Shown here in pieces: positions 1,212 through 11,289 of a stretch of DNA of 64,000 bases. Origin of the DNA: Vulcanimicrobiota bacterium (GTDB lineage: Bacteria; Vulcanimicrobiota; Vulcanimicrobiia; Vulcanimicrobiales; Vulcanimicrobiaceae); NCBI GenBank assembly GCA_963738335.1, contig CAVTWE010000003.1:5433-69432 (forward strand), given 5' to 3'. Position 1 is the first letter of the stretch, and every line of letters begins with the position of its first letter. The position numbers were made by a program, and so were the translations under genes. The notes under the pieces were generated by a model that saw only the letters and a list, made by a program, of their open reading frames with translations, made no database searches and had not been told where the DNA came from.

Positions 1212-1981
1212 CGCTGCGGATCCTGATCACCAACGACGACGGCATAGACTCGCCCGGCATCGCCGCGCTGGTCGAAGCGCTGACGCCCCATCATGAGGTG
1301 ACCGTGGTCGCGCCAACCGGCGATCGCAGCGGGGTTTCGCATGCAATCACCGGCGACGTAGCGATCACACTCGAGCGTCGAGCCGGCTTTGCCGTCGCGG
1401 CGTATGCGTGTTCCGGAACCCCGGCCGACTGCGTCTTTCTCGGTTCCACCGAACTCGGCCAACGGCCGGATCTCGTCGTCAGCGGCATCAACTACGGACC
1501 GAATCTCGCCGACGACATCAACTACTCCGGCACGGTTGCCGGCGCCGTCGAGGCCTGTCTGCTCGGCATACCCGCGATGGCTGCGTCGCTTGCGTGCGAG
1601 TACGAACGTCCGGCAGACGGTCCTCATTGGAATGCCGCAGCCGAGATCGTGCGGCGCTGCATCGTGCGCGGTTACGAAACGTTCTCCGACGTACGCTACT
1701 ACTGGAATCTCAACGTTCCGGATCTTTCGATCGACGCAATTTCCGGCATTGCGGTGACGCGCTTGGGACGCAAGCGCATCTGCGGCAGAATGGTCGGCGA
1801 AGACGGCGATGTTGGCGTTGCATATTATCGCGCCTGGGAGTCGCCGTTTGAAACGGATCGTTCGACGTCGGGCACGGACATCGGCGCCGTGCACGCTGGT
1901 TACGCCAGCCTGACGCCTCTGGTGCTCGATCGCACAGCGCCGTCGGCACCGGGCATCTCTGAAACCTTCGCCGAGCGCTGA
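1208..1981 (+). CDS. surE: 5'/3'-nucleotidase SurE (start uncertain: CTG 1208/1214 or TTG 1166)
   Basis: ...LRILITNDDGIDSPGIAALVEAL...VVAPTGDRSGVSHAIT... is the canonical SurE N-terminus. Homology begins at (L)RILITNDDG. The only canonical start (TTG 1166) adds an Arg-rich 16-aa extension that overlaps msrB. Confidence 0.85.
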   Translation: MTLRILITNDDGIDSPGIAALVEALTPHHEVTVVAPTGDRSGVSHAITGDVAITLERRAGFAVAAYACSGTPADCVFLGSTELGQRPDLVVSGINYGPNLADDINYSGTVAGAVEACLLGIPAMAASLACEYERPADGPHWNAAAEIVRRCIVRGYETFSDVRYYWNLNVPDLSIDAISGIAVTRLGRKRICGRMVGEDGDVGVAYYRAWESPFETDRSTSGTDIGAVHAGYASLTPLVLDRTAPSAPGISETFAER

Positions 1982-2862
1982 CCGTTCGGACCGGCGGTTT
2001 CGGCATGTCTGCGATTCGCGAGACGCCGCCCCGTCAGTGCCGCGATCTCCGATAAGCGCTGCATCAGCGCTTCGAACTGCGGGACGTCGAGGGATTGGGC
2101 GCCGTCGGAAAGCGCTCGAGGCGGATCCGGATGCACTTCGACCAACAAACCGTGCGCGCCGGCCGCGAGGCTGGCGACGGCGACCGCAGGCACCAAACGC
2201 GCGATACCGACTGCATGCGACGGATCGACGATAGTGGGCAGGTGCGTCATCTCTTCGAGCAGCGGCACCACCGCAATATCGAGCAAGTTGCGCGTCGCAA
2301 CGTCGAACGAACGCACCCCGCGTTCGCACAGCACGACGTCCTCGTTACCGCCGACCATCACGTATTCGGCAGCGAGTAACCATTCTTGCACCGTTGCCGA
2401 CAATCCGCGTTTGAGCAACACGGGCGTCCGAACCGCGCCCACCTCTCGGAGCAGGACGAAGTTCTGCATGTTGCGAGCGCCGATCTGCAGCATGTCGGCA
2501 TACCTGCAGACTTTCTCGACGTCGCGCGGGTCGAGCACCTCGGTGACGACGGCGAGATTGGTGCGATCGCCGGCATCGCGCAGCAACTTGAGTCCTTCTT
2601 CTCCAAGTCCCTGAAACGAGTAGGGGGAGGTCCGCGGCTTATACGCGCCCCCGCGCAAGACGTTGGCGCCGGCAGCGGCAACCGCTCTTGCTGCCGTTTC
2701 TAATTGTTCGCGCGACTCGACACCGCACGGGCCCGCGCAAATCGCAATTTCGTCGCCGCCGAACGCGGCGCCATTGCGCAAACGCACGACCGTGCGTTCG
2801 GGTTTGGCGTCGCGGCGGACAAGACGGTATGACTGCGGTACGTTGACCCCTCGCTCCATCAA
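1900..2862 (-). CDS. aroF: 3-deoxy-7-phosphoheptulonate (DAHP) synthase, type I-beta
   Basis: AICAGPCGVESREQLETAARAV...VLRGGAYKPRTSPYSFQGLGEEGLKLL...MLQIGARNMQNF...VLLKRG...DPSH matches the KDO8P/DAHP synthase I-beta family. The 3' end overlaps surE convergently. The last ~35 aa are non-homologous. Confidence 0.9.
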   Translation of the reverse strand: MMERGVNVPQSYRLVRRDAKPERTVVRLRNGAAFGGDEIAICAGPCGVESREQLETAARAVAAAGANVLRGGAYKPRTSPYSFQGLGEEGLKLLRDAGDRTNLAVVTEVLDPRDVEKVCRYADMLQIGARNMQNFVLLREVGAVRTPVLLKRGLSATVQEWLLAAEYVMVGGNEDVVLCERGVRSFDVATRNLLDIAVVPLLEEMTHLPTIVDPSHAVGIARLVPAVAVASLAAGAHGLLVEVHPDPPRALSDGAQSLDVPQFEALMQRLSEIAALTGRRLANRRHAETAGPNGQRSAKVSEMPGADGAVRSSTRGVRLA

Positions 2863-2946: not shown

Positions 2947-4176
2947 GTGAGGCCCCCGCACAAGACGCGCGTGGAGCATGTCGCAGTCACTGGAATGGGA
3001 GTCGTTTCGCCCATCGGCGCGACGGTGCAACGCTTTTGGGATGGATTGACGGAAAGCCGGCGCGCCATTGGGCCCATCGCCGATGCCCCCGTCAAGCTGA
3101 CCGGCAACGGCTTGTGGGCCGCCGTCCGCGACGATTTTCTCCGCGACGCGCCGCTGGAAGCGAGCGCATTGCGCAATACCGATCGCTTCACGCAGTATGC
3201 AGTCGCCGCGACGGCACACGCGCTCGCGCAGGCGCACCTCACTCCACCGGACGACACCGCGGTCATCGTCGGCAACACGATGGGCGGTCTGCCCTTCCTC
3301 GCACAATCGCAAAGCCGATTCATCGAAAGCGGCGGCCGATCGGTTTCGCCCAAGCTGATGGCATTGGTTATTCCGAACATGGCGCCCGCGCGCATCGCGA
3401 TGCACTGGAGCCTCCACGGTCTGCAACTTGCGATCAGCACGGCATGCGCTTCATCGCTCGATGCGATCGGCATGGCCGCAAAGATGATCGAGCGCGGCGA
3501 AGTCGAGACGGCGATCGCCGGCGGCACGGAGACGCTGTTGAGTCCGCTCGTCTACGAATCGCTCGTTCGCGCCGGAGCGCTGTCGCGCAACGAGGACGTA
3601 CAGCGGTCGTCTCGCCCATTCGATATCGAACGGGACGGGTTCGTCATGGGCGACGGCGGCGCGATCCTCATCTTAGAACGCGCCGAGCGCGCGACGCGGC
3701 GCGGTGCGCCGATTCTTGCGCGCATCCGCGGCTACGGTTCGATAGCCGACGCCCATCACATCACCTCGCCGGATCCGTCGGCGCGCTACGAAATTGCAGC
3801 GATGGAACGAGCGTGCGCCCAAGCCGGCGATGCGGCGTCCGCGTGCTCCGTCATCTACGCGCATGCAACCGGCACGATCGTGGGCGATGCCGCCGAGATG
3901 CGCGCGATCAACTCGGTCAATCCACGTGCGATCGTCACCTCCATTAAGGGTCACATCGGTCATAGCATGGCCGGCGCGGGTGCACTCTGCGCCGTCGCCG
4001 GCATTGCAGGAATGCACGCCCAATGCATTCCGCCGACAATGGGAACGCAGCATCCCGACGGTGAGGTGTGCTTCGACCTCGTCATGGGAGGACCGCGAAC
4101 GTTCGCCTACGACGCGTTTCAAGTCAACGCGTTCGGCTTCGGCGGCCAAAACGCGTCGCTGGTGCTCTCGCGATAA
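2947..4176 (+). CDS. beta-ketoacyl synthase, KAS I/II (FabF/FabB-like) family
   Basis: VAVTGMGVVSPIG...; active-site Cys in AISTACASSLDAIGMAAKMI; His motifs YAHATGT and KGHIGHSMAGAG; C-terminal NAFGFGGQNASLVL. An alternative GTG start lies at 2971. Confidence 0.9.
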   Translation: MRPPHKTRVEHVAVTGMGVVSPIGATVQRFWDGLTESRRAIGPIADAPVKLTGNGLWAAVRDDFLRDAPLEASALRNTDRFTQYAVAATAHALAQAHLTPPDDTAVIVGNTMGGLPFLAQSQSRFIESGGRSVSPKLMALVIPNMAPARIAMHWSLHGLQLAISTACASSLDAIGMAAKMIERGEVETAIAGGTETLLSPLVYESLVRAGALSRNEDVQRSSRPFDIERDGFVMGDGGAILILERAERATRRGAPILARIRGYGSIADAHHITSPDPSARYEIAAMERACAQAGDAASACSVIYAHATGTIVGDAAEMRAINSVNPRAIVTSIKGHIGHSMAGAGALCAVAGIAGMHAQCIPPTMGTQHPDGEVCFDLVMGGPRTFAYDAFQVNAFGFGGQNASLVLSR

Positions 4177-4243
4177 TGCGCGTGCAGGGCGTGTTGGACG
4201 AAACTCGGAAGGTTCGCGCGAGCACCCTCGTGATAGGACGCCG

Positions 4244-7200
4244 ATGAATCTTCTCGTCAAGGGAACGAGTGGACCGCTGACCGGCGAACTCGTCGTTCCA
4301 AACTCGAAATATCACGCGCATCGCGCGTTGATTTTGGCATCGCTCGCGCCGGGCACCAGCCGCATCGTCGGGCTCTCCGGCGCGCGCCACGTTGAGTTTA
4401 CGATGGACGTGTTGCGCGCGCTCGGCACGACGATCGAAGCGCGCGACGGCGATCTGTATGTGACTGGCGGTCCCTATCGCGTCCAACGCTCGACGGTATC
4501 GGTCGGAAGCTCCGGTTCGACGCTCTACTTCATGATCGGTCTCGCGTCGCTGGCCGACGCACCGATTACCCTGACGGCGCAGAAATATTTCCAGCGGCGT
4601 CCCGTTGGGCCGCTGCTCGAAGCGCTGGATGCGTTGGGCGTGCGCTTCGAAGCGAACGCCGGCTGTCCGCCCATCGCCGTTTTTCCGGGGCGGCCGCACG
4701 GCGGTCACATCGTCATCTCCGGCACGCTTTCGCAATGGATCTCGGGGTTGTTGCTGCTGGCGCCGTTCGCGCGCGAGCGCACGACGATCGAAATCGACGG
4801 CGAGTTGAACGAACGGCCGTATCTAGCGCTGACCGTGCAAATGATGCGCGCATTCAATCTCGAGGTCGCTATAGCCAAAGATTGGCGGTGTTTTGAGATC
4901 GAGCCGAATCAAGAAGCGCGTCCCGCAACCGTCGAGTTGCCGCCCGACATCGGTTCGGCCGCGTTTGGGCTCGCCATGACCGCGCTACATCCTTCGGACG
5001 TCGTGTTCCATGGTCTCGGCGACCCGCGTTCGCAGCGCACAGACCATCCCGAAGCGGCATTCCTCGACATCGTCGCGGACATGGGACTGCCGATGCAGTA
5101 CGATCCCGCCTCGAAAACCGTGCGCGTGCGCCACGATGGCCTCGACCTGCGCGGCGTACGCGTCGATTGTCGCGATATTCCCGACATGCTGCCGGTTCTC
5201 TCGACGCTGGGAACGTTCGCTCGCGGCGAGACGGTGCTGGAAAACATAGCGCACGTTCGTCTCAAAGAATCCGATCGGGTCGCAGCGATGCTGCAACTCA
5301 ATCGCATGGGCGGCCAGATCGAGTTGCTCGACGACCGGCTGGTAGCGCATGGCATACGAGAACTGCGCGGAACGCATCTCTCCTCGTTCAACGATCATCG
5401 GATATTGATGTCGCTGGCCGTGGCAGCGTCGCGCGCACACGGAGAGAGTACGCTGACGTATCCGCACGCGTACCGCATTTCCTATCCACAGTTCCTGGAT
5501 GCGATGCGCTCGATCGGCGTGTCGATGTCGGTCGTCAACTCGTCGGCCGATGCCCGGCGTCAGCCGCCATCCGCCATGCTGACGCCGGACGAGGCGGCCG
5601 GACGCACGATGCACGAACTGCTCACCGAACGCGCACAGGCGTCCCCAGAACAACCTGCGGTCGTTGAAACGCGCGACGACGGCGACGTCGCGCTCTCATG
5701 GCGGGATCTGGCAGATCGGGTGGATCGCACTGCAATGCTCCTGCTCGAACTCGGCGTGCGTCCCGGCGAATGCGTCGCGTTTCAGCTCCCTAACTGCCTG
5801 GAGTTCGTCGTCATCGCGTTGGCGACGCTGCGCATCGACGCCGTGTGCTGTCCGCTGATGCCGATCTTCCGCGAACGTGAAGTGGCGTTCTGCTTGCGCC
5901 GCTCGCGCGCGCGGGTGCTTTTCGTTCCGGATGAAGCGCGCGGGCGCCGTCACGCCGACGAAATCGCGACGCTGCTGCGCGAAGCGACCGTGTCGGAGGG
6001 CGATTTCCCCCTCTGCTTGGAGCATGTCGTGGTGTGCGCGGGCGGCGCGATTCCGTATACGCTCCCAGCGCCCGATTATAACGACCGTTCGTCGTCGTGG
6101 CTGCGCTTCGCCGACGCGCTCAACGCCGTGCGCGTGGATGCCGCCTCCCTTGCATCGCGCGCACCACAGTCAAACGCCGTCGCACAACTGCTCTTTACAT
6201 CGGGAACGTCGGGCGAACCTAAGGGCGTCTTGCATCGCAACGACGTGTTGATGCGCGCGGCCGCAATGGAGGTCGAGCATCTGCATCTCGGGCCCGACGA
6301 TCGCATCTTCATCCCATCGCCGCTCGCGCATCAGACGGGTTTCCTTTACGGGATGTGGTTGGCGCTGGTCATGGGTGTGCCGCAGATCGTGCAGCCGGTG
6401 TGGAACGCCCAGCGCGCGCTGCGGGCGCTACGGGATTGGAACGGCACGTTCGTCCAAGCCGCCACGCCGTTTTTGGCGGATCTTGTCGACGCCGTCAAAG
6501 AAGGTGAATCCGCAGCGCCCACGTTGCGAATCTTCGTCGCAACCGGCGCCGCGGTGCCGCGTACTTTAGCCGAACGCGCTACGCGCATTCTGGGAACCGC
6601 CGTCTGTGGAGCGTGGGGCACGACCGAATCGTGTTTGGGATCGCTTGCAGCGCCGACCGACGAGCCGGCGAAAGTGTGGGGAACCGATGGTCGCGCGCTG
6701 CGCCGCATTCATCTCCGCATTGCCGATGCTGAAGGCCGGCTGCTGGCCGCCGGCGAGGAAGGCCACTTCGAGGTGCTCTCGCCGACGATGTTCGTCGGAT
6801 ACGCCGATCGTCCCGAATGGACCGCCGCCGCATATACACCCGACGGATGGTTTCGCACCGGGGATCTGGGCGTGATGGACGAGGCGGGCTTCATCCGCAT
6901 TACCGGCCGCGTGCGCGACGTCATCAATCGCGGCGGCGAGAAAGTTCCGGTTGCGGAGATGGAGCAACTGCTCTCCGATCATCCGGCGATCGCCGCCATC
7001 GCGATCGTCGCGATGCCGGACGAGCGTCTCGGCGAGCGGGCATGCGCGTTCGTGCAACTGCGCCCGAGGATGCGCTTCACGTTCGAACAGATGAAACACT
7101 ATCTCCACGCGTGCCAAGCGTCGAAGCACTATTGGCCGGAACGACTCGAGATCGTCGACGAACTCCCGCGCACCGCCTCCGGCAAGATCCAAAAGTACGT

Positions 7201-7261
7201 CTTACGCGAACGGGCGCGCGAACTGCGGCCGCAAGAGCGCGAACGCGCGACCATCGGGTGA
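4244..7261 (+). CDS. fusion protein: EPSP-synthase-like (3-phosphoshikimate 1-carboxyvinyltransferase fold) domain + AMP-dependent acyl-CoA ligase domain
   Basis: A single uninterrupted frame. Residues from ATG 4244 (MNLLVKGTSGPLTGELVVPNSKYHAHRALILASLA...LKESDRVAAM...NDHRILMSLAVAA) are EPSPS-like up to ~5545. From ~5576 the sequence is an adenylate-forming ligase (LLFTSGTSGEPKGVLH, GWFRTGDLG...GRVRDVINRGGEKV, PRTASGKIQK). The track start at 3794 is an out-of-context extension that overlaps the KAS gene. Confidence 0.85.
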   Translation: MNLLVKGTSGPLTGELVVPNSKYHAHRALILASLAPGTSRIVGLSGARHVEFTMDVLRALGTTIEARDGDLYVTGGPYRVQRSTVSVGSSGSTLYFMIGLASLADAPITLTAQKYFQRRPVGPLLEALDALGVRFEANAGCPPIAVFPGRPHGGHIVISGTLSQWISGLLLLAPFARERTTIEIDGELNERPYLALTVQMMRAFNLEVAIAKDWRCFEIEPNQEARPATVELPPDIGSAAFGLAMTALHPSDVVFHGLGDPRSQRTDHPEAAFLDIVADMGLPMQYDPASKTVRVRHDGLDLRGVRVDCRDIPDMLPVLSTLGTFARGETVLENIAHVRLKESDRVAAMLQLNRMGGQIELLDDRLVAHGIRELRGTHLSSFNDHRILMSLAVAASRAHGESTLTYPHAYRISYPQFLDAMRSIGVSMSVVNSSADARRQPPSAMLTPDEAAGRTMHELLTERAQASPEQPAVVETRDDGDVALSWRDLADRVDRTAMLLLELGVRPGECVAFQLPNCLEFVVIALATLRIDAVCCPLMPIFREREVAFCLRRSRARVLFVPDEARGRRHADEIATLLREATVSEGDFPLCLEHVVVCAGGAIPYTLPAPDYNDRSSSWLRFADALNAVRVDAASLASRAPQSNAVAQLLFTSGTSGEPKGVLHRNDVLMRAAAMEVEHLHLGPDDRIFIPSPLAHQTGFLYGMWLALVMGVPQIVQPVWNAQRALRALRDWNGTFVQAATPFLADLVDAVKEGESAAPTLRIFVATGAAVPRTLAERATRILGTAVCGAWGTTESCLGSLAAPTDEPAKVWGTDGRALRRIHLRIADAEGRLLAAGEEGHFEVLSPTMFVGYADRPEWTAAAYTPDGWFRTGDLGVMDEAGFIRITGRVRDVINRGGEKVPVAEMEQLLSDHPAIAAIAIVAMPDERLGERACAFVQLRPRMRFTFEQMKHYLHACQASKHYWPERLEIVDELPRTASGKIQKYVLRERARELRPQERERATIG

Positions 7262-8391
7262 CGGATTTCCAACGGCTCAAGGCCGAGATCGCCGACTACG
7301 TCGCGGGGCCGGCGGAAACATGGGCGCAACGCATCGAACGCGAGCGCCGCGTTCCCATGGAGTTGTGGGAGGAGTTGCGCGATCGCGGTTTCCTTAGGTT
7401 GGCGGCGCCCGTCGAATACGGCGGCCGCGGGATACCGTTCTCGCAGTATCTCGAACTCGTCGAACTCTTCTCGATGTCGCACGCCTCTATACGGATGATC
7501 GTCCACGTCGTCAACGGCACGTGGCGCGCGATGGATCGCTACGCGACGCCGGAGCAGCGCGAGCAGTTCGTGCTGCCCTCAATTCGCGGCGACGTGAAAA
7601 TCGCGTTCACGCTGACCGAGCCGACCGCGGGAACGGGCGCCGATTTGCGGTGCAGCGTCGAACGGGAGGACGAGACGTACTATCTCAGCGGTGAGAAGCA
7701 CCTCATCACCTTCGGCACGATCTGCGATTACTGGTTGCTCTTCGCGCGCCTCGCCGGAACGACGGGCGCCGATGGAACGGTCGCGCTACTCGTGGATCGT
7801 CACGCGCCCGGCGTAACGGTCACAGCAATGGACGAATCGATGGGCGTGCGCGGCACCGATCACGGGCGTCTGACGTTTTCTCGCACTCCCGTTCCCATCG
7901 CGCAACGGCTTGGCGGCGAAGGGCAAGGCTTGGAGATCGCGCTCGGCGGCTTTCTGACGCCGAGCCGCATTTCGGTCGCGATGAGCTGCGTCGGGCTCGC
8001 GCGACGGGCACAGGAGCTCGCAGTCGCGTACGCGCGCACGCGTCAAACGTTCGGTAAACGTCTCGAGCAGCGACAGGCAATTCGCTTCATGATCGCAGAG
8101 AATGCCACCGAGATCGAAGCGGCGCGCCAACTCACGCTGCACGCTGCTCGCTGTTGGGAGGCGGGGGACCCGGCGGCGGCGATGCTTTCCTCGATGTCCA
8201 AGCTGCAAGCCGTCGACATGCTGACGCGCGTGACCGATAAAGCGCTGCAAATCCACGGCGGCATCGGCTACTGGCAACCACACGCGATCGAGCGCGTTTA
8301 CCGCGACGCGCGCGCGCAACGCTTCGAAGAGGGGACGAACGAAATTCAAAAGACCGTCATCGCCCGCCAGATTCTCGGCGGCTTCTTCCGC
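7258..8391 (+). CDS. acyl-CoA dehydrogenase family protein (no stop codon before the following SDR as assembled)
   Basis: GTG 7258 overlaps the stop of the upstream fusion ORF (GTGA). FTLTEPTAGTGADLRCSVE...YYLSGEKHLITFG...IHGGIGY...YRDARAQRFEEGTNEIQKTVIARQIL is a typical ACAD. The frame then runs on into MSTRFAGTIALITG. Confidence 0.88.
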
Positions 8392-9197
8392 ATGAGTACG
8401 CGTTTCGCCGGAACGATCGCATTGATCACCGGAAGTTCGCGCGGTATCGGTCGAGCGCTGGCGCTAGCGCTCGCCGAACAAGGCGCCTCCATCGTCGTGA
8501 ATTACCATCGCAACGACGTCTTGGCCGCCGAGGTTTGTGCTGCCGTTGAGGGATTCGGCGGCCGCGCATTTGCGTGCAGGCCAATATGGAAGAACCCGCC
8601 GACATCGACCGCTTGTTCGATGCGGCGAAGGCCGAGTTCGGACGGCTCGATTTCTTTATCTCAAACGCCGCAGCCAGTTCGTTCAAGAAGATCGACGATC
8701 TCAAAGCACACAACCTCGATCGCTCTTATGCGCTCAACGTGCGCGCGTTCGTGCTGGGCGCACAGCGCGCCGCACGTTTGATGCCGGGTGGCGGACGCAT
8801 CGTCGTGCTCTCGAGCTACGGCAGCATTCGCGCGTATCCGACCTACGCGAATCTCGGTTCGAATAAAGCCGCGATCGAAGCATGGGTGCGCTACATGGCG
8901 GTCGAATTCGCGCCGCGCGGCATTAACGTCAATGCGGTCAACGGCGGATTGATCGACACCGAATCGTGCGCGTACTTTTACGAAAACGTGCCCGGAATGG
9001 CGCCGATCGAAAGCGTTTTGGAGAAGATTCCCAAGCGCCGCATGGGAACCGCGCGCGAAGTCGCCGATGCGATCGCTTTTCTGCTCGCGCCGGAGTCCGA
9101 CTACATCACCGGGCAGACCCTGTGCGTCGACGGCGGTCTGAACGTCATCGCGCCGCCCTTTTACGCCGACACGACGCCGCCGCTCTCGTTGGAGTAG
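8392..9197 (+). pseudogene. short-chain dehydrogenase/reductase (ChcA/FabG/FabI-like enoyl/ketoacyl reductase), frame-disrupted near 8573
   Basis: The N-terminus IALITGSSRGIGRALALALAEQGASIVVNY...GGRAFA is in frame 0. The remainder [14 protein letters not shown]...NAAAS...VLSSYGS...[14 protein letters not shown]...[10 protein letters not shown]...GQTLCVDGG is in the frame of ORF 8574..9197. One missing base in gcg(g)tgcag would restore AFAVQAN. Confidence 0.85.
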
Positions 9198-9284
9198 GAG
9201 TCTGCCGGATGACGGCCGTCTTCGGATCCCCGGTCGCAAAAGGCGCCGTGAGACGGAAATGCGCCGTAATCCGGTAGACTGCTA

Positions 9285-11289
9285 ATGCTTTCCGCGGCGC
9301 TGCGGCCCGGCAGCATCGGCACGCTGCGTCTGCCCAACCGAATCGTCATGGGCTCGATGCACCTCGGCATCGAGGCGAACGGCGCCGCCCTCGGCGAGTT
9401 CTACGCGCTACGGTCGAAGGGCGGCGCGGCGCTCATCGTGACCGGCGGCTCGTGCGTCAATCGCGCGGGCGCCGGTGGACGCAACTACAGTTTCATCAAC
9501 GAAGAAACGTCCACTCCGCCCCTTGCGCGCGCCGCCGAGGCCGTGCATCGCGCCGGCGGACGCATCGCGCTGCAGCTGTTCCATGCCGGGCGCTACGCGT
9601 ACCGCGAATCGTTCGGCATCCAACCGGTTGCGCCGTCGGCAATCGCGTCGCGCTTTTCGCCCGATCCGCCGCGCGCGATGGACGAACGCGACATCGAGCA
9701 GACCATCGCCGATTTTGCAAGCGGCGCGGAGCGCGCCCGCGCGCTGGGTTTCGATGCAGTCGAAGTGATGGCGTCGGAAGGCTATCTGCTCAATCAGTTT
9801 CTTTCGCCCTTGACGAACTGCCGCGACGATGCATGGGGCGGCGATCTCGAACGGCGCATGCGAATGCCGCTGACCGTTCTGCGCGCCATCCGCAGCGCCG
9901 CAGGCGATGATTTCCCGGTGATATTCCGCATTTCGGGCGCCGATTTGATGCCAGGATCGAGCACACAGGACGAAAGCTTGGCGTTCGCCCGACGGCTCGT
10001 CGCCGAACGGCGTCGACGCGCTCAACGTCGGCATCGGCTGGCACGAATCGCGAATTCCGACCGTGCAGCAGCTGGTGCCGCATGGCGTGTGGGTGCGCTT
10101 CGCAACCGCGGTCAAGGGCGTCGCCGGCGATTTGCCGGTGATCGCGAGCAATCGCATCAACAGCATGGAACTCGCCGAGAGCGTGCTCGCATCGGGAGCA
10201 GCGGACTTCGTTTCCATGGCACGTCCGTTTCTCGCCGACGCGGAGATCGTCGCCAAGTCGGTGCGCGGCGACGCGGCACTGGTGGACACGTGCATCGCGT
10301 GCAATCAAGCGTGCATCGACCGTTCCTTGATCGACGCGCCGGTGTCGTGCATGGTCAATCCGCGCGCCGGCCGCGAAATCGACTTCCCCGAACGGCGGAC
10401 CGTTGCGCCGCGTCGTTTTGCCGTCGTCGGCGGTGGCCCTGCGGGAATGGAGTGCGCGCGCGCCTTGGCGGCGCTCGGCCATCGCGTCGAGGTATTCGAA
10501 GCGGAAACCGAGTTGGGTGGTCAGTTTCGCATGGCGCGCCGCATTCCGGGAAAAGCCGAGTTCGGCGAAACGATCCGCTACTTCAGCAACGAGTTGCCGC
10601 GGCTCGGCGTTATCGTGCACTTGACTGCGCGGGTGCGGGATGCACGGTCGCTGCGCGGTTTCGACGGCGTCGTACTGGCCACGGGCGTGCTGCCCAAAAG
10701 GATAACCATGGACGGCCGAGGTCTGGCGCACGTCATAGACTACGCACAACTTCTCGCGCACGATGTACCGGCCGGTGAGCGGGTCGCAATTCTCGGCGCC
10801 GGCGGCATCGGCGTCGACGTCGCGCACTTCCTCAGTCACGGCCGGACGGATGCCGATGTAACGACTCGCTTTCTCTACGAGCAAGGTTTGGCGGCGCCCG
10901 AAGACGGCGCCGTGCTCGTCACCAGACGCAAGACCGTCGCGATGATGCGTCGGGGACATAGCATCGGCGAGCGCCTCGGCAAGACGACGCGCTGGGCGGT
11001 GCTCGCCGCGTTACGCGCAGCAGGCGTCAACACGATTACCGGCGTCGTCTATGAAGCGATCGAACCTGGCGGGATTCGCGTGCGCACCGCTTCAGGTGAG
11101 GCGCGGCTGGTCGAAGCAGATACGGTGATCGTTGCGGCCGGCCAAGAACGCAACGACGCACTCCTCGACGGCATTCGCTCGTTGGACGTTCCCTACCGCG
11201 TCGTTGGAGGCGCCAAGGATGCCGCCGAACTCGACGCCGTCCGGGCCTTCGAGGAAGGTTTACGAGCGGCACACGAGCTTTGCCGCTAA
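9285..11289 (+). pseudogene. 2,4-dienoyl-CoA reductase-like flavoprotein (OYE/FMN barrel + 4Fe-4S + FAD/NAD(P) domain), frame-disrupted near 10008
   Basis: The N-terminus LPNRIVMGSMH...LQLFHAGRY...FDAVEVMASEGYLLNQFLSP...DAWGG is in ORF 9285. It continues GVDALNVGIGWHESRIPTVQQ...CIACNQACIDR...FAVVGGGPAGMECARALAALGHRVEVFE...GGQ in ORF 10063..11289. Confidence 0.88.

Follow-up and report, generated by a model that had tools for sequence, protein, structure and literature searches.

A fused EPSP-synthase-like and acyl-CoA ligase protein in Eremiobacterota, predicted to open a route from shikimate to cyclohexanecarboxyl-CoA

Introduction

What is the purpose of a single polypeptide that joins a relative of 5-enolpyruvylshikimate-3-phosphate synthase (EPSPS) to an acyl-CoA ligase? 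The question is raised by one open reading frame (ORF) in a 64,000-nucleotide stretch of DNA from a Vulcanimicrobiota bacterium of the phylum Eremiobacterota (assembly GCA_963738335.1, contig CAVTWE010000003.1, positions 5,433 to 69,432); we call this whole stretch the window. A preliminary description, made from the letters of the window alone, had drawn attention to this fusion and to an unusual loop in its EPSPS-like half. Our follow-up analysis leads us to a definite proposal: the ORF very probably encodes a two-domain enzyme that opens the pathway from shikimate to the CoA thioester of cyclohexanecarboxylate (CHC-CoA). It would be an orthologue of MycA4, and presumably also of PlmJK and of the fused member of the AsuB1-B4 set. 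We give below the evidence from known relatives, operon partners and active-site residues, take up the alternatives beside the evidence that bears on them, and then consider how the fusion may have arisen and what the pathway may make.

Relatives among known cyclohexanecarboxylate gene sets

Pfam finds three domains in the fusion protein: EPSP_synthase (PF00275) at residues 9-421, matching profile positions 4-417 of 417 (E 1.5e-76), AMP-binding (PF00501) at residues 461-853 (E 2.3e-65) and AMP-binding_C (PF13193) at residues 905-981. The same three domains in the same order make up MycA4 of Streptomyces flaveolus (P0493, "MycA4 [Streptomyces flaveolus]", AFG19409.1, UniRef100_H9TE88), a protein of the mycotrienin/ansatrienin cluster that has 998 aa against 1005 in the window and is 60% identical to the window fusion (residues 1-1000 of the window protein vs 1-996). 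MycA4 keeps the catalytic residues of EPSPS and has the same EPSPS-site signature as the window protein (Y23, S94, Y100, E197, H336 and I411; residues are numbered as in E. coli EPSPS, PDB 2qfq, except where window positions are stated). MycA1-A4 synthesise the CHC moiety of ansatrienin from shikimate (PMC13304725). The two proteins differ in host, that of MycA4 belonging to the Actinomycetota, and in setting. Unlike MycA4, the window operon lies outside any cluster for a polyketide synthase (PKS) or nonribosomal peptide synthetase (NRPS), with no PKS or NRPS gene found near it, and is accompanied by genes for a DAHP synthase (3-deoxy-7-phosphoheptulonate synthase) and a FabF-like ketoacyl synthase (KS) in housekeeping surroundings.

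Two further antibiotic pathways bear on the comparison. The CHC genes of phoslactomycin are tabulated as plmJK (AMP-dependent synthetase/ligase), plmL (short-chain acyl-CoA dehydrogenase), chcA (reductase) and plmM (NADH:FMN oxidoreductase) (PMC5852498), and for asukamycin four genes, asuB1-B4, are given for CHC-CoA (PMC12720273). Because plmL, chcA and plmM take the other functions, plmJK would therefore have to carry the EPSPS-like function too, and we infer that PlmJK and the fused member of AsuB1-B4 are the same fusion. Going by their annotations, PlmJK (PnP1/LmP1) and AsuB have in common with the window a four-gene CHC-CoA set in which one gene has two functions; a difference is that their products feed modular or type II-like PKSs for antibiotics. 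Since plmL encodes an acyl-CoA dehydrogenase (ACAD) and plmM an old yellow enzyme (OYE), the EPSPS homologue probably corresponds to AnsJ or AnsK, and not to AnsL. The "AnsL-like" label that the window protein had been given is thus probably wrong, PlmL being the acyl-CoA dehydrogenase of the phoslactomycin table. The same table (PMC5852498) contradicts the reading that PlmJK is a ligase plus an OYE reductase and AnsL the EPSPS homologue, and we dropped that reading.

When the fused protein from a Streptomyces locus served as query, the architecture proved to be common in that genus. One Streptomyces locus (L078) has the fusion, ACAD, short-chain dehydrogenase/reductase (SDR) and OYE genes in the window's order, together with genes for a type II dehydroquinate synthase, an adenylating enzyme, a flavin reductase, an arylamine N-acyltransferase, a ketoacyl synthase III (KASIII) and an FAD monooxygenase. 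Going by the asukamycin cluster, we take this gene content to be a manumycin-type set.

The fusion had initially been thought undescribed. Given the full-length match to MycA4 and the plmJK and asuB1-B4 sets, which imply the same fusion, that idea has to be given up: the fusion is an already published, little-discussed feature of CHC-CoA gene sets. What is new here is the host phylum, Eremiobacterota, and the housekeeping genomic context, not the fusion itself.

Ligase half and predicted structure

The C-terminal half is an ANL-superfamily ligase whose P-loop (A3) reads TSGTSGEPKG at residues 652-661 and whose A10 lysine is K981, in the motif SGKIQK. Residues T652, S653, G654, T655, P659, G980 and K981 are invariant among 47 homologues. 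Its top NCBIfam model is cyclohexanecarboxylate-CoA ligase (TIGR03208), matched over the full length at 463-466 bits, although the equivalog cutoff of 792.3 is not reached. AliA, the enzyme of this best-matching family model, resembles the window ligase in that alicyclic carboxylates are the substrates of both (predicted for the window ligase), but AliA is catabolic and stands alone, and the window score lies far under the AliA cutoff. Among solved structures, FadD13 and aryl-acid adenylating enzymes come nearest.

An AlphaFold2 model made with the 47 homologues has a mean predicted local distance difference test score (pLDDT) of 82.6, with most of the EPSPS-like domain above 90 and linker residues 433-442 below 50; the predicted template modelling score (pTM) is 0.51 and the inter-domain geometry is not confident. 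The model thus shows two well-folded domains joined by a flexible tether, and it predicts no interface between them with confidence.

Operon partners and the indels downstream of the fusion

The core order of fusion, ACAD, SDR and OYE genes is kept in about 80 loci of two phyla. In the window the GTG start of the ACAD gene overlaps the TGA stop of the fusion (GTGA, 7258-7261), a sign that translation of the fusion is coupled to that of the following pathway enzyme. Intact counterparts of the downstream genes are present in a sister locus from a JGI metagenome (L001), whose fusion protein (P0001) is 90% identical to that of the window. There the ACAD has acryloyl-CoA reductase and cyclohexane-1-carbonyl-CoA dehydrogenase as its top NCBIfam matches, both under cutoff; the SDR is FabL-like (252.9 bits, NCBIfam); and the OYE reductase, of 668 aa, matches BaiCD and FadH/OYE family models.

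Compared with L001, the window carries three single-base indels downstream of the fusion. With a +1 near 8382 the ACAD gene loses its stop, and its frame runs into the SDR ATG at 8392; a -1 near 8569 in a T-run (TTTT to TTT) breaks the ChcA-like SDR; and a +1 near 10008 breaks the OYE/FadH-like reductase. The KS gene and the 3-kb fusion gene are clean of indels.

Broken genes are also seen elsewhere in the phylum. Fusion homologues P0086, P0087, P0091, P0093 and P0094, from Eremiobacterota metagenome-assembled genomes (MAGs), are N-terminally truncated or split (926-955 aa), and in the Eremiobacterota MAG loci L012, L042, L049 and L055 the fusion or the OYE gene is matched in split or truncated form. 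Indel errors seem to be common in these Eremiobacterota assemblies.

A possible objection to a working pathway in this genome is that the cluster is decaying, with the fusion intact, the pathway dead and the SDR and OYE reductase genes reduced to pseudogenes. That all three indels fall within 1.7 kb of pathway genes, leaving the KS and the fusion untouched, speaks for such decay, which we nevertheless consider rather unlikely. One of the indels is in a T homopolymer, what is left of the broken genes has kept about 80% identity to L001, and the split or truncated matches in the four MAG loci and the 926-955-aa clusters are of a kind typical of consensus errors. Because related long-read MAG loci show such similar split matches, sequencing (consensus) error is the more likely cause of the indels.

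Residues of the EPSPS-like domain and the predicted reaction

Every EPSPS motif quoted in the preliminary description is present in the fusion protein: SKYHAHRAL at residues 21-29, GSSGSTLYF at 88-96, RRPVGPLLEAL at 118-128, LKESDRVAAM at 340-349 and NDHRILM at 383-389. The class I loop G-N94-A-G96-T-A-M-R100-P aligns to G-S-S-G-S-T-L-Y-F in the window, and the loss of the conserved Asn and Arg that had been read from this loop is borne out by comparison with E. coli EPSPS, Asn94 being replaced by Ser and Arg100 by Tyr. Within the loop, G88, S90, G91, T93, L94, Y95 and F96 (window positions) are invariant in the 47 fused homologues.

To place these changes we compared 111 ordinary EPSPS representatives with the clade of EPSPS-like proteins to which the window domain belongs (the CHC clade, described below). 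Residues K22, R27, R124, D313, K340, E341, R344, H385 and R386 are invariant in both sets, as are G96, S170, Q171 and Y200; in the window the first group is kept as K22, R27, R119, D314, K341, E342, R345, H385 and R386. Three residues are specific to the clade: Y23 in place of Ser, S94 in place of Asn, and Y or Q at position 100 in place of Arg (window Y23, S89 and Y95). The ordinary representatives have S23 in 98 of the 111, N94 in 69 and R100 in 93. E197, H336 and I411 are shared with many ordinary EPSPS and so fall outside the clade signature; the change of K411 to Ile is found throughout the clade, and many ordinary EPSPS also lack K411. We dropped S169L as a signature residue, since a second alignment has a gap at position 169 and the assignment depends on the alignment.

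For the roles of these residues, on the phosphoenolpyruvate (PEP) side or on the side of shikimate 3-phosphate (S3P) and the loop, we rely on the EPSPS structural literature. On those presumed roles, the PEP-side and catalytic machinery appears to be intact, and the S3P-contact side and closing loop appear remodelled.

We propose the following scheme. The ligase would adenylate shikimate, or a close cyclohexene-carboxylate, and form the CoA thioester (shikimoyl-CoA or an analogue). The EPSPS-like domain would bind the shikimoyl moiety in the S3P pocket as remodelled by Y23, S94 and Y/Q100, and the first ring oxygen would be removed by way of the retained acid-base and anion-binding residues K22, D313, E341, R124, R344, H385 and R386. 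This removal might be a direct elimination or might proceed with PEP or phosphate, and it might come before or after CoA ligation. The steps of dehydration and reduction that remain on the way to CHC-CoA would fall to the flavoprotein, the SDR and the OYE reductase. The flexible tether would hold the two activities close together in a 1:1 ratio and would not act as a rigid channel. The original guess of a shikimate-derived CoA pathway looks essentially right, judging by the CHC-CoA operon partners. A reconstitution is reported by Skyrud, Del Rio Flores and Zhang (ACS Catal, 2020).

A variant of this scheme would make the EPSPS-like domain a true PEP-dependent enolpyruvyl transferase, acting on shikimoyl-CoA or on unphosphorylated shikimate, with the enolpyruvyl ether serving as the leaving group for elimination. 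In its favour, the residues that would bind and activate PEP (K22, R124, Q171, D313, E341, R344, H385 and R386) are invariant in the clade, and the changes are confined to the S3P/loop side, on the residue roles presumed above. Against it, the conserved arginines could bind the phosphates of CoA instead, K411 has become Ile (though, as said, ordinary enzymes often do without it), and the literature that we found does not mention that PEP is needed to form CHC-CoA. Dehydrations are what classic labelling work reportedly describes, which also weighs against enolpyruvyl transfer. We regard this variant as unlikely.

Several points weigh against our preferred reading of the fusion as a MycA4-type enzyme that forms the CoA thioester and removes the first ring oxygen. 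First, the role of the EPSPS-like domain and the order in which the domains act are inferred. Second, the whole PEP site is kept, which could mean real enolpyruvyl transfer and not a simple dehydration. Third, R27 is retained in the EPSPS-like domain. R27 of EPSPS helps to bind substrate, and its retention leaves room for a free acid as the substrate and for action of the EPSPS-like domain ahead of ligation. Fourth, the AlphaFold2 model has no fixed domain interface (pTM 0.51); channelling by the fusion, as proposed in the preliminary description, is plausible, but the disordered linker and the lack of confident inter-domain geometry do not speak for it. Fifth, we equated the fusion with PlmJK and AsuB1 by gene counts, annotation tables and the manumycin-type locus L078, rather than by sequence. 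Sixth, the SDR and OYE genes are frameshifted in the window, and the pathway may be inactive here unless these are sequencing errors. Finally, for the sole cultured Eremiobacterota strain (Vulcanimicrobium), iso-C14:0 and related acids are listed and no cyclohexyl fatty acids (PMC9758169), a point that would count only if that strain carries the operon.

A clade distinct from housekeeping AroA

The N-terminal domain scores 309.8 bits with the NCBIfam aroA model TIGR01356 and so passes its equivalog cutoff of 287.25. In an exhaustive search with the EPSPS domain, the full-length members of the CHC clade scored at least 331 bits, and the next full-length EPSPS (about 400 aa or longer) scored at most 284 bits with at most 38% identity. 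A profile of stand-alone clade members gave a second gap, from 507 to 333 bits. The clade holds fused forms of about 1000 aa and stand-alone forms of 426-460 aa, and it is monophyletic on a neighbour-joining tree (computed without support values). The phmmer matches of the domain to solved EPSPS structures include 5xwb (3e-48) and 1g6s (1.5e-41). We looked for a second EPSPS in the 64-kb window and found none.

Could the N-terminal domain be a genuine housekeeping AroA that became fused by chance to a ligase, in the manner of the bifunctional AroA-Cmk or TyrA-AroA proteins? It resembles class I AroA (E. coli 1G6S, PDB 5xwb) in its full-length two-lobed fold, it keeps every invariant catalytic and PEP-binding residue, it passes TIGR01356, and its public annotation is 3-phosphoshikimate 1-carboxyvinyltransferase. 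We think this highly improbable for the following reasons. First, the domain falls into a clade of its own, set off from ordinary EPSPS by a large gap in score, and it is only 27% identical to E. coli AroA (tblastn). Second, it has Y23, S94 and Y100 (S23Y, N94S, R100Y), and the clade as a whole Y23, S94 and Y/Q100, where most ordinary EPSPS have S, N and R. Third, unlike AroA it is fused to a ligase, its operon context differs from that of AroA, and its linkage to the CHC-CoA enzyme set is invariable, the Streptomyces antibiotic clusters included. Fourth, MycA4 has been assigned to CHC formation. These observations support the view, first put forward in the preliminary description, that the EPSPS-like domain is not a housekeeping AroA; it belongs to a separate clade with CHC enzymes as partners. 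GSSGSTLYF, which might have turned out to be a variant found in bona fide EPSPS, is instead part of the clade signature.

Beside the CHC clade branch two stand-alone EPSPS-like proteins, P0141 (Anaerolineaceae) and P0143 (Deltaproteobacteria), which share Y23 and have N or D at position 94 and N or Q at position 100. They may represent another diverged group of EPSPS paralogues.

In public data the fusion protein is named '3-phosphoshikimate 1-carboxyvinyltransferase' (NCBI, UniRef) or 'cyclohexanecarboxylate-CoA ligase' (JGI) across hundreds of genomes (including P0001-P0120 and P0425-P0521). The first of these labels is explained by the score of the EPSPS-like domain, which lies above the aroA equivalog cutoff of NCBIfam. 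Through such systematic mis-annotation as aroA, a metabolic reconstruction can show a shikimate pathway as complete when it is not, and a specialised-metabolism operon can stay hidden. The clade also offers a clean natural case of repurposing of the EPSPS fold, in which the catalytic apparatus is whole and three substrate-side residues (Y23, S94 and Y/Q100) are changed.

Integrity and origin of the fusion

That the ORF is one open frame of about 1005 codons, as first described, is confirmed. The window and L001 are collinear, with 83% DNA identity and zero gaps from 4194 to 8382. More than 120 protein clusters (at 90% identity) of about 1005 aa have all three domains, nearly all of them spanning 99-100% of the query, and more than 100 independent assemblies code for the fusion protein of about 1005 aa. 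A scan of one genome per species found relatives of the fusion in 141 genomes, most of them Eremiobacterota (Vulcanimicrobiota, Ca. Cybelea and Baltobacteraceae); the isolate genomes that carry it belong to Microlunatus, Streptosporangium, Lentzea and Streptomyces. Conservation is strong in both domains, at a mean column identity of 69% among the 47 diverse fused homologues, and falls to 0.57 in the linker of about 18 residues (alignment of 117 fused proteins).

We reject the idea that a missed stop or indel near 5550-5600 merged two adjacent genes, one EPSPS-like and one for a ligase: other lineages do have such genes unfused and adjacent, neighbouring window genes do hold single-base indels, and the linker does contain an in-frame ATG (5576) and an out-of-frame TGA (5580), but the sister locus aligns without a gap over the entire ORF, a protein of about 1000 aa recurs in 141 species genomes, isolates included, and in more than 120 independent clusters at 90% identity, and MycA4 was deposited as a 998-aa protein. 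Because of the gap-free alignment and the full-length homologues in many genomes, the hidden stop or indel for which a check had been suggested is excluded.

Two ATGs of the linker region are in frame, at 5576 (M445) and, as originally given, at 5609 (M456); the out-of-frame TGA, which had been placed at 5579-5581, lies at 5580-5582. The string ATGCTGA (5576-5582) thus consists of the in-frame ATG of M445 followed by the out-of-frame TGA, roughly where the ligase starts in unfused operons. It may be a relic of the old gene junction or an internal start site.

Unfused relatives show what the two halves look like as separate genes. In an Alicyclobacillaceae MAG, in Paenibacillus glycinis and in locus L084, a stand-alone EPSPS-like gene is directly followed by a separate gene for a ligase of 514-530 aa, with ACAD, OYE reductase and SDR genes coming after the pair; in L084 the EPSPS-like and ligase genes overlap by 4 bp (ATGA). 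These unfused pairs (ansJ/ansK-type, in Alicyclobacillaceae and Paenibacillus) share with the window the clade signature, the order of EPSPS-like gene then ligase, and the ACAD, OYE reductase, SDR and sometimes DAHP synthase neighbours. They differ in having two polypeptides (435-448 aa and 514-530 aa), the EPSPS-like one being 42-46% identical to the window domain. Because the two halves are separate adjacent genes in these Firmicutes-type operons, we conclude that the fusion arose through loss of the stop codon between adjacent, co-translated operon genes. Fused and unfused forms are interleaved on the neighbour-joining tree (again without support values), which suggests more than one fusion or fission event.

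Likely product in Eremiobacterota

Two genes upstream of the core set are specific to Eremiobacterota. The DAHP synthase (420.6 bits with the NCBIfam model for 3-deoxy-7-phosphoheptulonate synthase, exceeding its cutoff of 335) is found at the same position in nearly all Eremiobacterota loci and is predicted to be a pathway-dedicated entry to shikimate synthesis. The FabF-like KS (353.9 bits with fabF TIGR03150, under the equivalog cutoff of 493.75) is conserved upstream of the fusion in Eremiobacterota loci only. The operon is flanked by msrA, msrB and surE upstream, and by a helix-turn-helix regulator, rplU, trmD and a signal peptidase gene downstream. Because the operon includes a DAHP synthase and a FabF-like KS of its own and lies in housekeeping surroundings, its context suggests a cyclohexyl-primed fatty acid or lipid as the product in Eremiobacterota, rather than an antibiotic.

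Extending this, we tentatively suggest, as a possibility that we hold to be less than even, that CHC-CoA is made from shikimate fed by the DAHP synthase in many Eremiobacterota of soil and peat (Ca. Cybelea / Baltobacterales), which would build omega-cyclohexyl fatty acids or cyclohexyl lipids from it with the FabF-like KS; the EPSPS-like domain, its PEP site being intact, might in addition be PEP-dependent and act on a CoA thioester. To our knowledge, omega-cyclohexyl fatty acids have so far been tied to a few Firmicutes and Actinobacteria. If the suggestion is true, such lipids would be a diagnostic biomarker for a largely uncultured phylum. Since most of the Ca. Cybelea genomes sampled carry the compact operon of DAHP synthase, KS and CHC-CoA genes, cyclohexyl lipids are predicted for an abundant soil phylum.

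Features of the window and further observations

Table 1. Features of the fusion ORF and its operon in the window
Feature	Coordinates	Strand	Remarks
DAHP synthase (type I-beta), divergent	1900..2862	-	Pfam DAHP_synth_1 8.9e-75
FabF-like beta-ketoacyl synthase (KAS I/II, Cys-His-His)	2947..4176	+	Pfam ketoacyl-synt, Ketoacyl-synt_C; first gene of the operon
Fusion ORF, putative MycA4-type enzyme	4244..7261	+	ATG to TGA, 1005 aa; EPSPS-like domain, linker, acyl-CoA ligase
EPSP-synthase-like domain (aa 9-421)	4268..5506	+	Pfam PF00275
GSSGSTLYF loop (aa 88-96)	4505..4531	+	In place of class I EPSPS G-N-A-G-T-A-M-R-P
Inter-domain linker (aa ~430-447)	5531..5584	+	Arg/Pro/Ala-rich, variable in length and sequence
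ANL-superfamily acyl-CoA ligase	5624..7186	+	AMP-binding 461-853, AMP-binding_C 905-981
Acyl-CoA-dehydrogenase-like flavoprotein (ACAD)	7258..8391	+	Pfam Acyl-CoA_dh_N/M/1; GTG start
ChcA-like SDR enoyl reductase	8392..9197	+	N-part in ACAD frame, C-part ORF 8574..9197
OYE + pyridine-nucleotide-disulphide reductase (FadH / 2,4-dienoyl-CoA reductase type)	9285..11289	+	Oxidored_FMN split over ORFs 9285..10778 and 10063..11289

The window and L001 differ at two further places. The window holds an additional intergenic 88 bp (9198-9285) between its SDR and OYE genes that is absent from L001, and after its operon L001 has a gene for a 430-aa GloVer-repeat (choice-of-anchor) protein (L001 16987-18279) that the window is without.

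Two actinobacterial loci surround the fusion with other genes. In Lentzea sp. NBRC 105346 (L076 7712-9738 and 18381-19529), two KASIII genes come before the fusion and a class II DAHP synthase gene after it. In Streptosporangium saharense (L071 3133-6509 and 16943-22753), the genes around the fusion encode a protein that combines AMP-binding and PP-binding domains, a P450, a KS, a class IV aminotransferase and a condensation-domain protein. Both loci are probably uncharacterised CHC-primed natural-product clusters.

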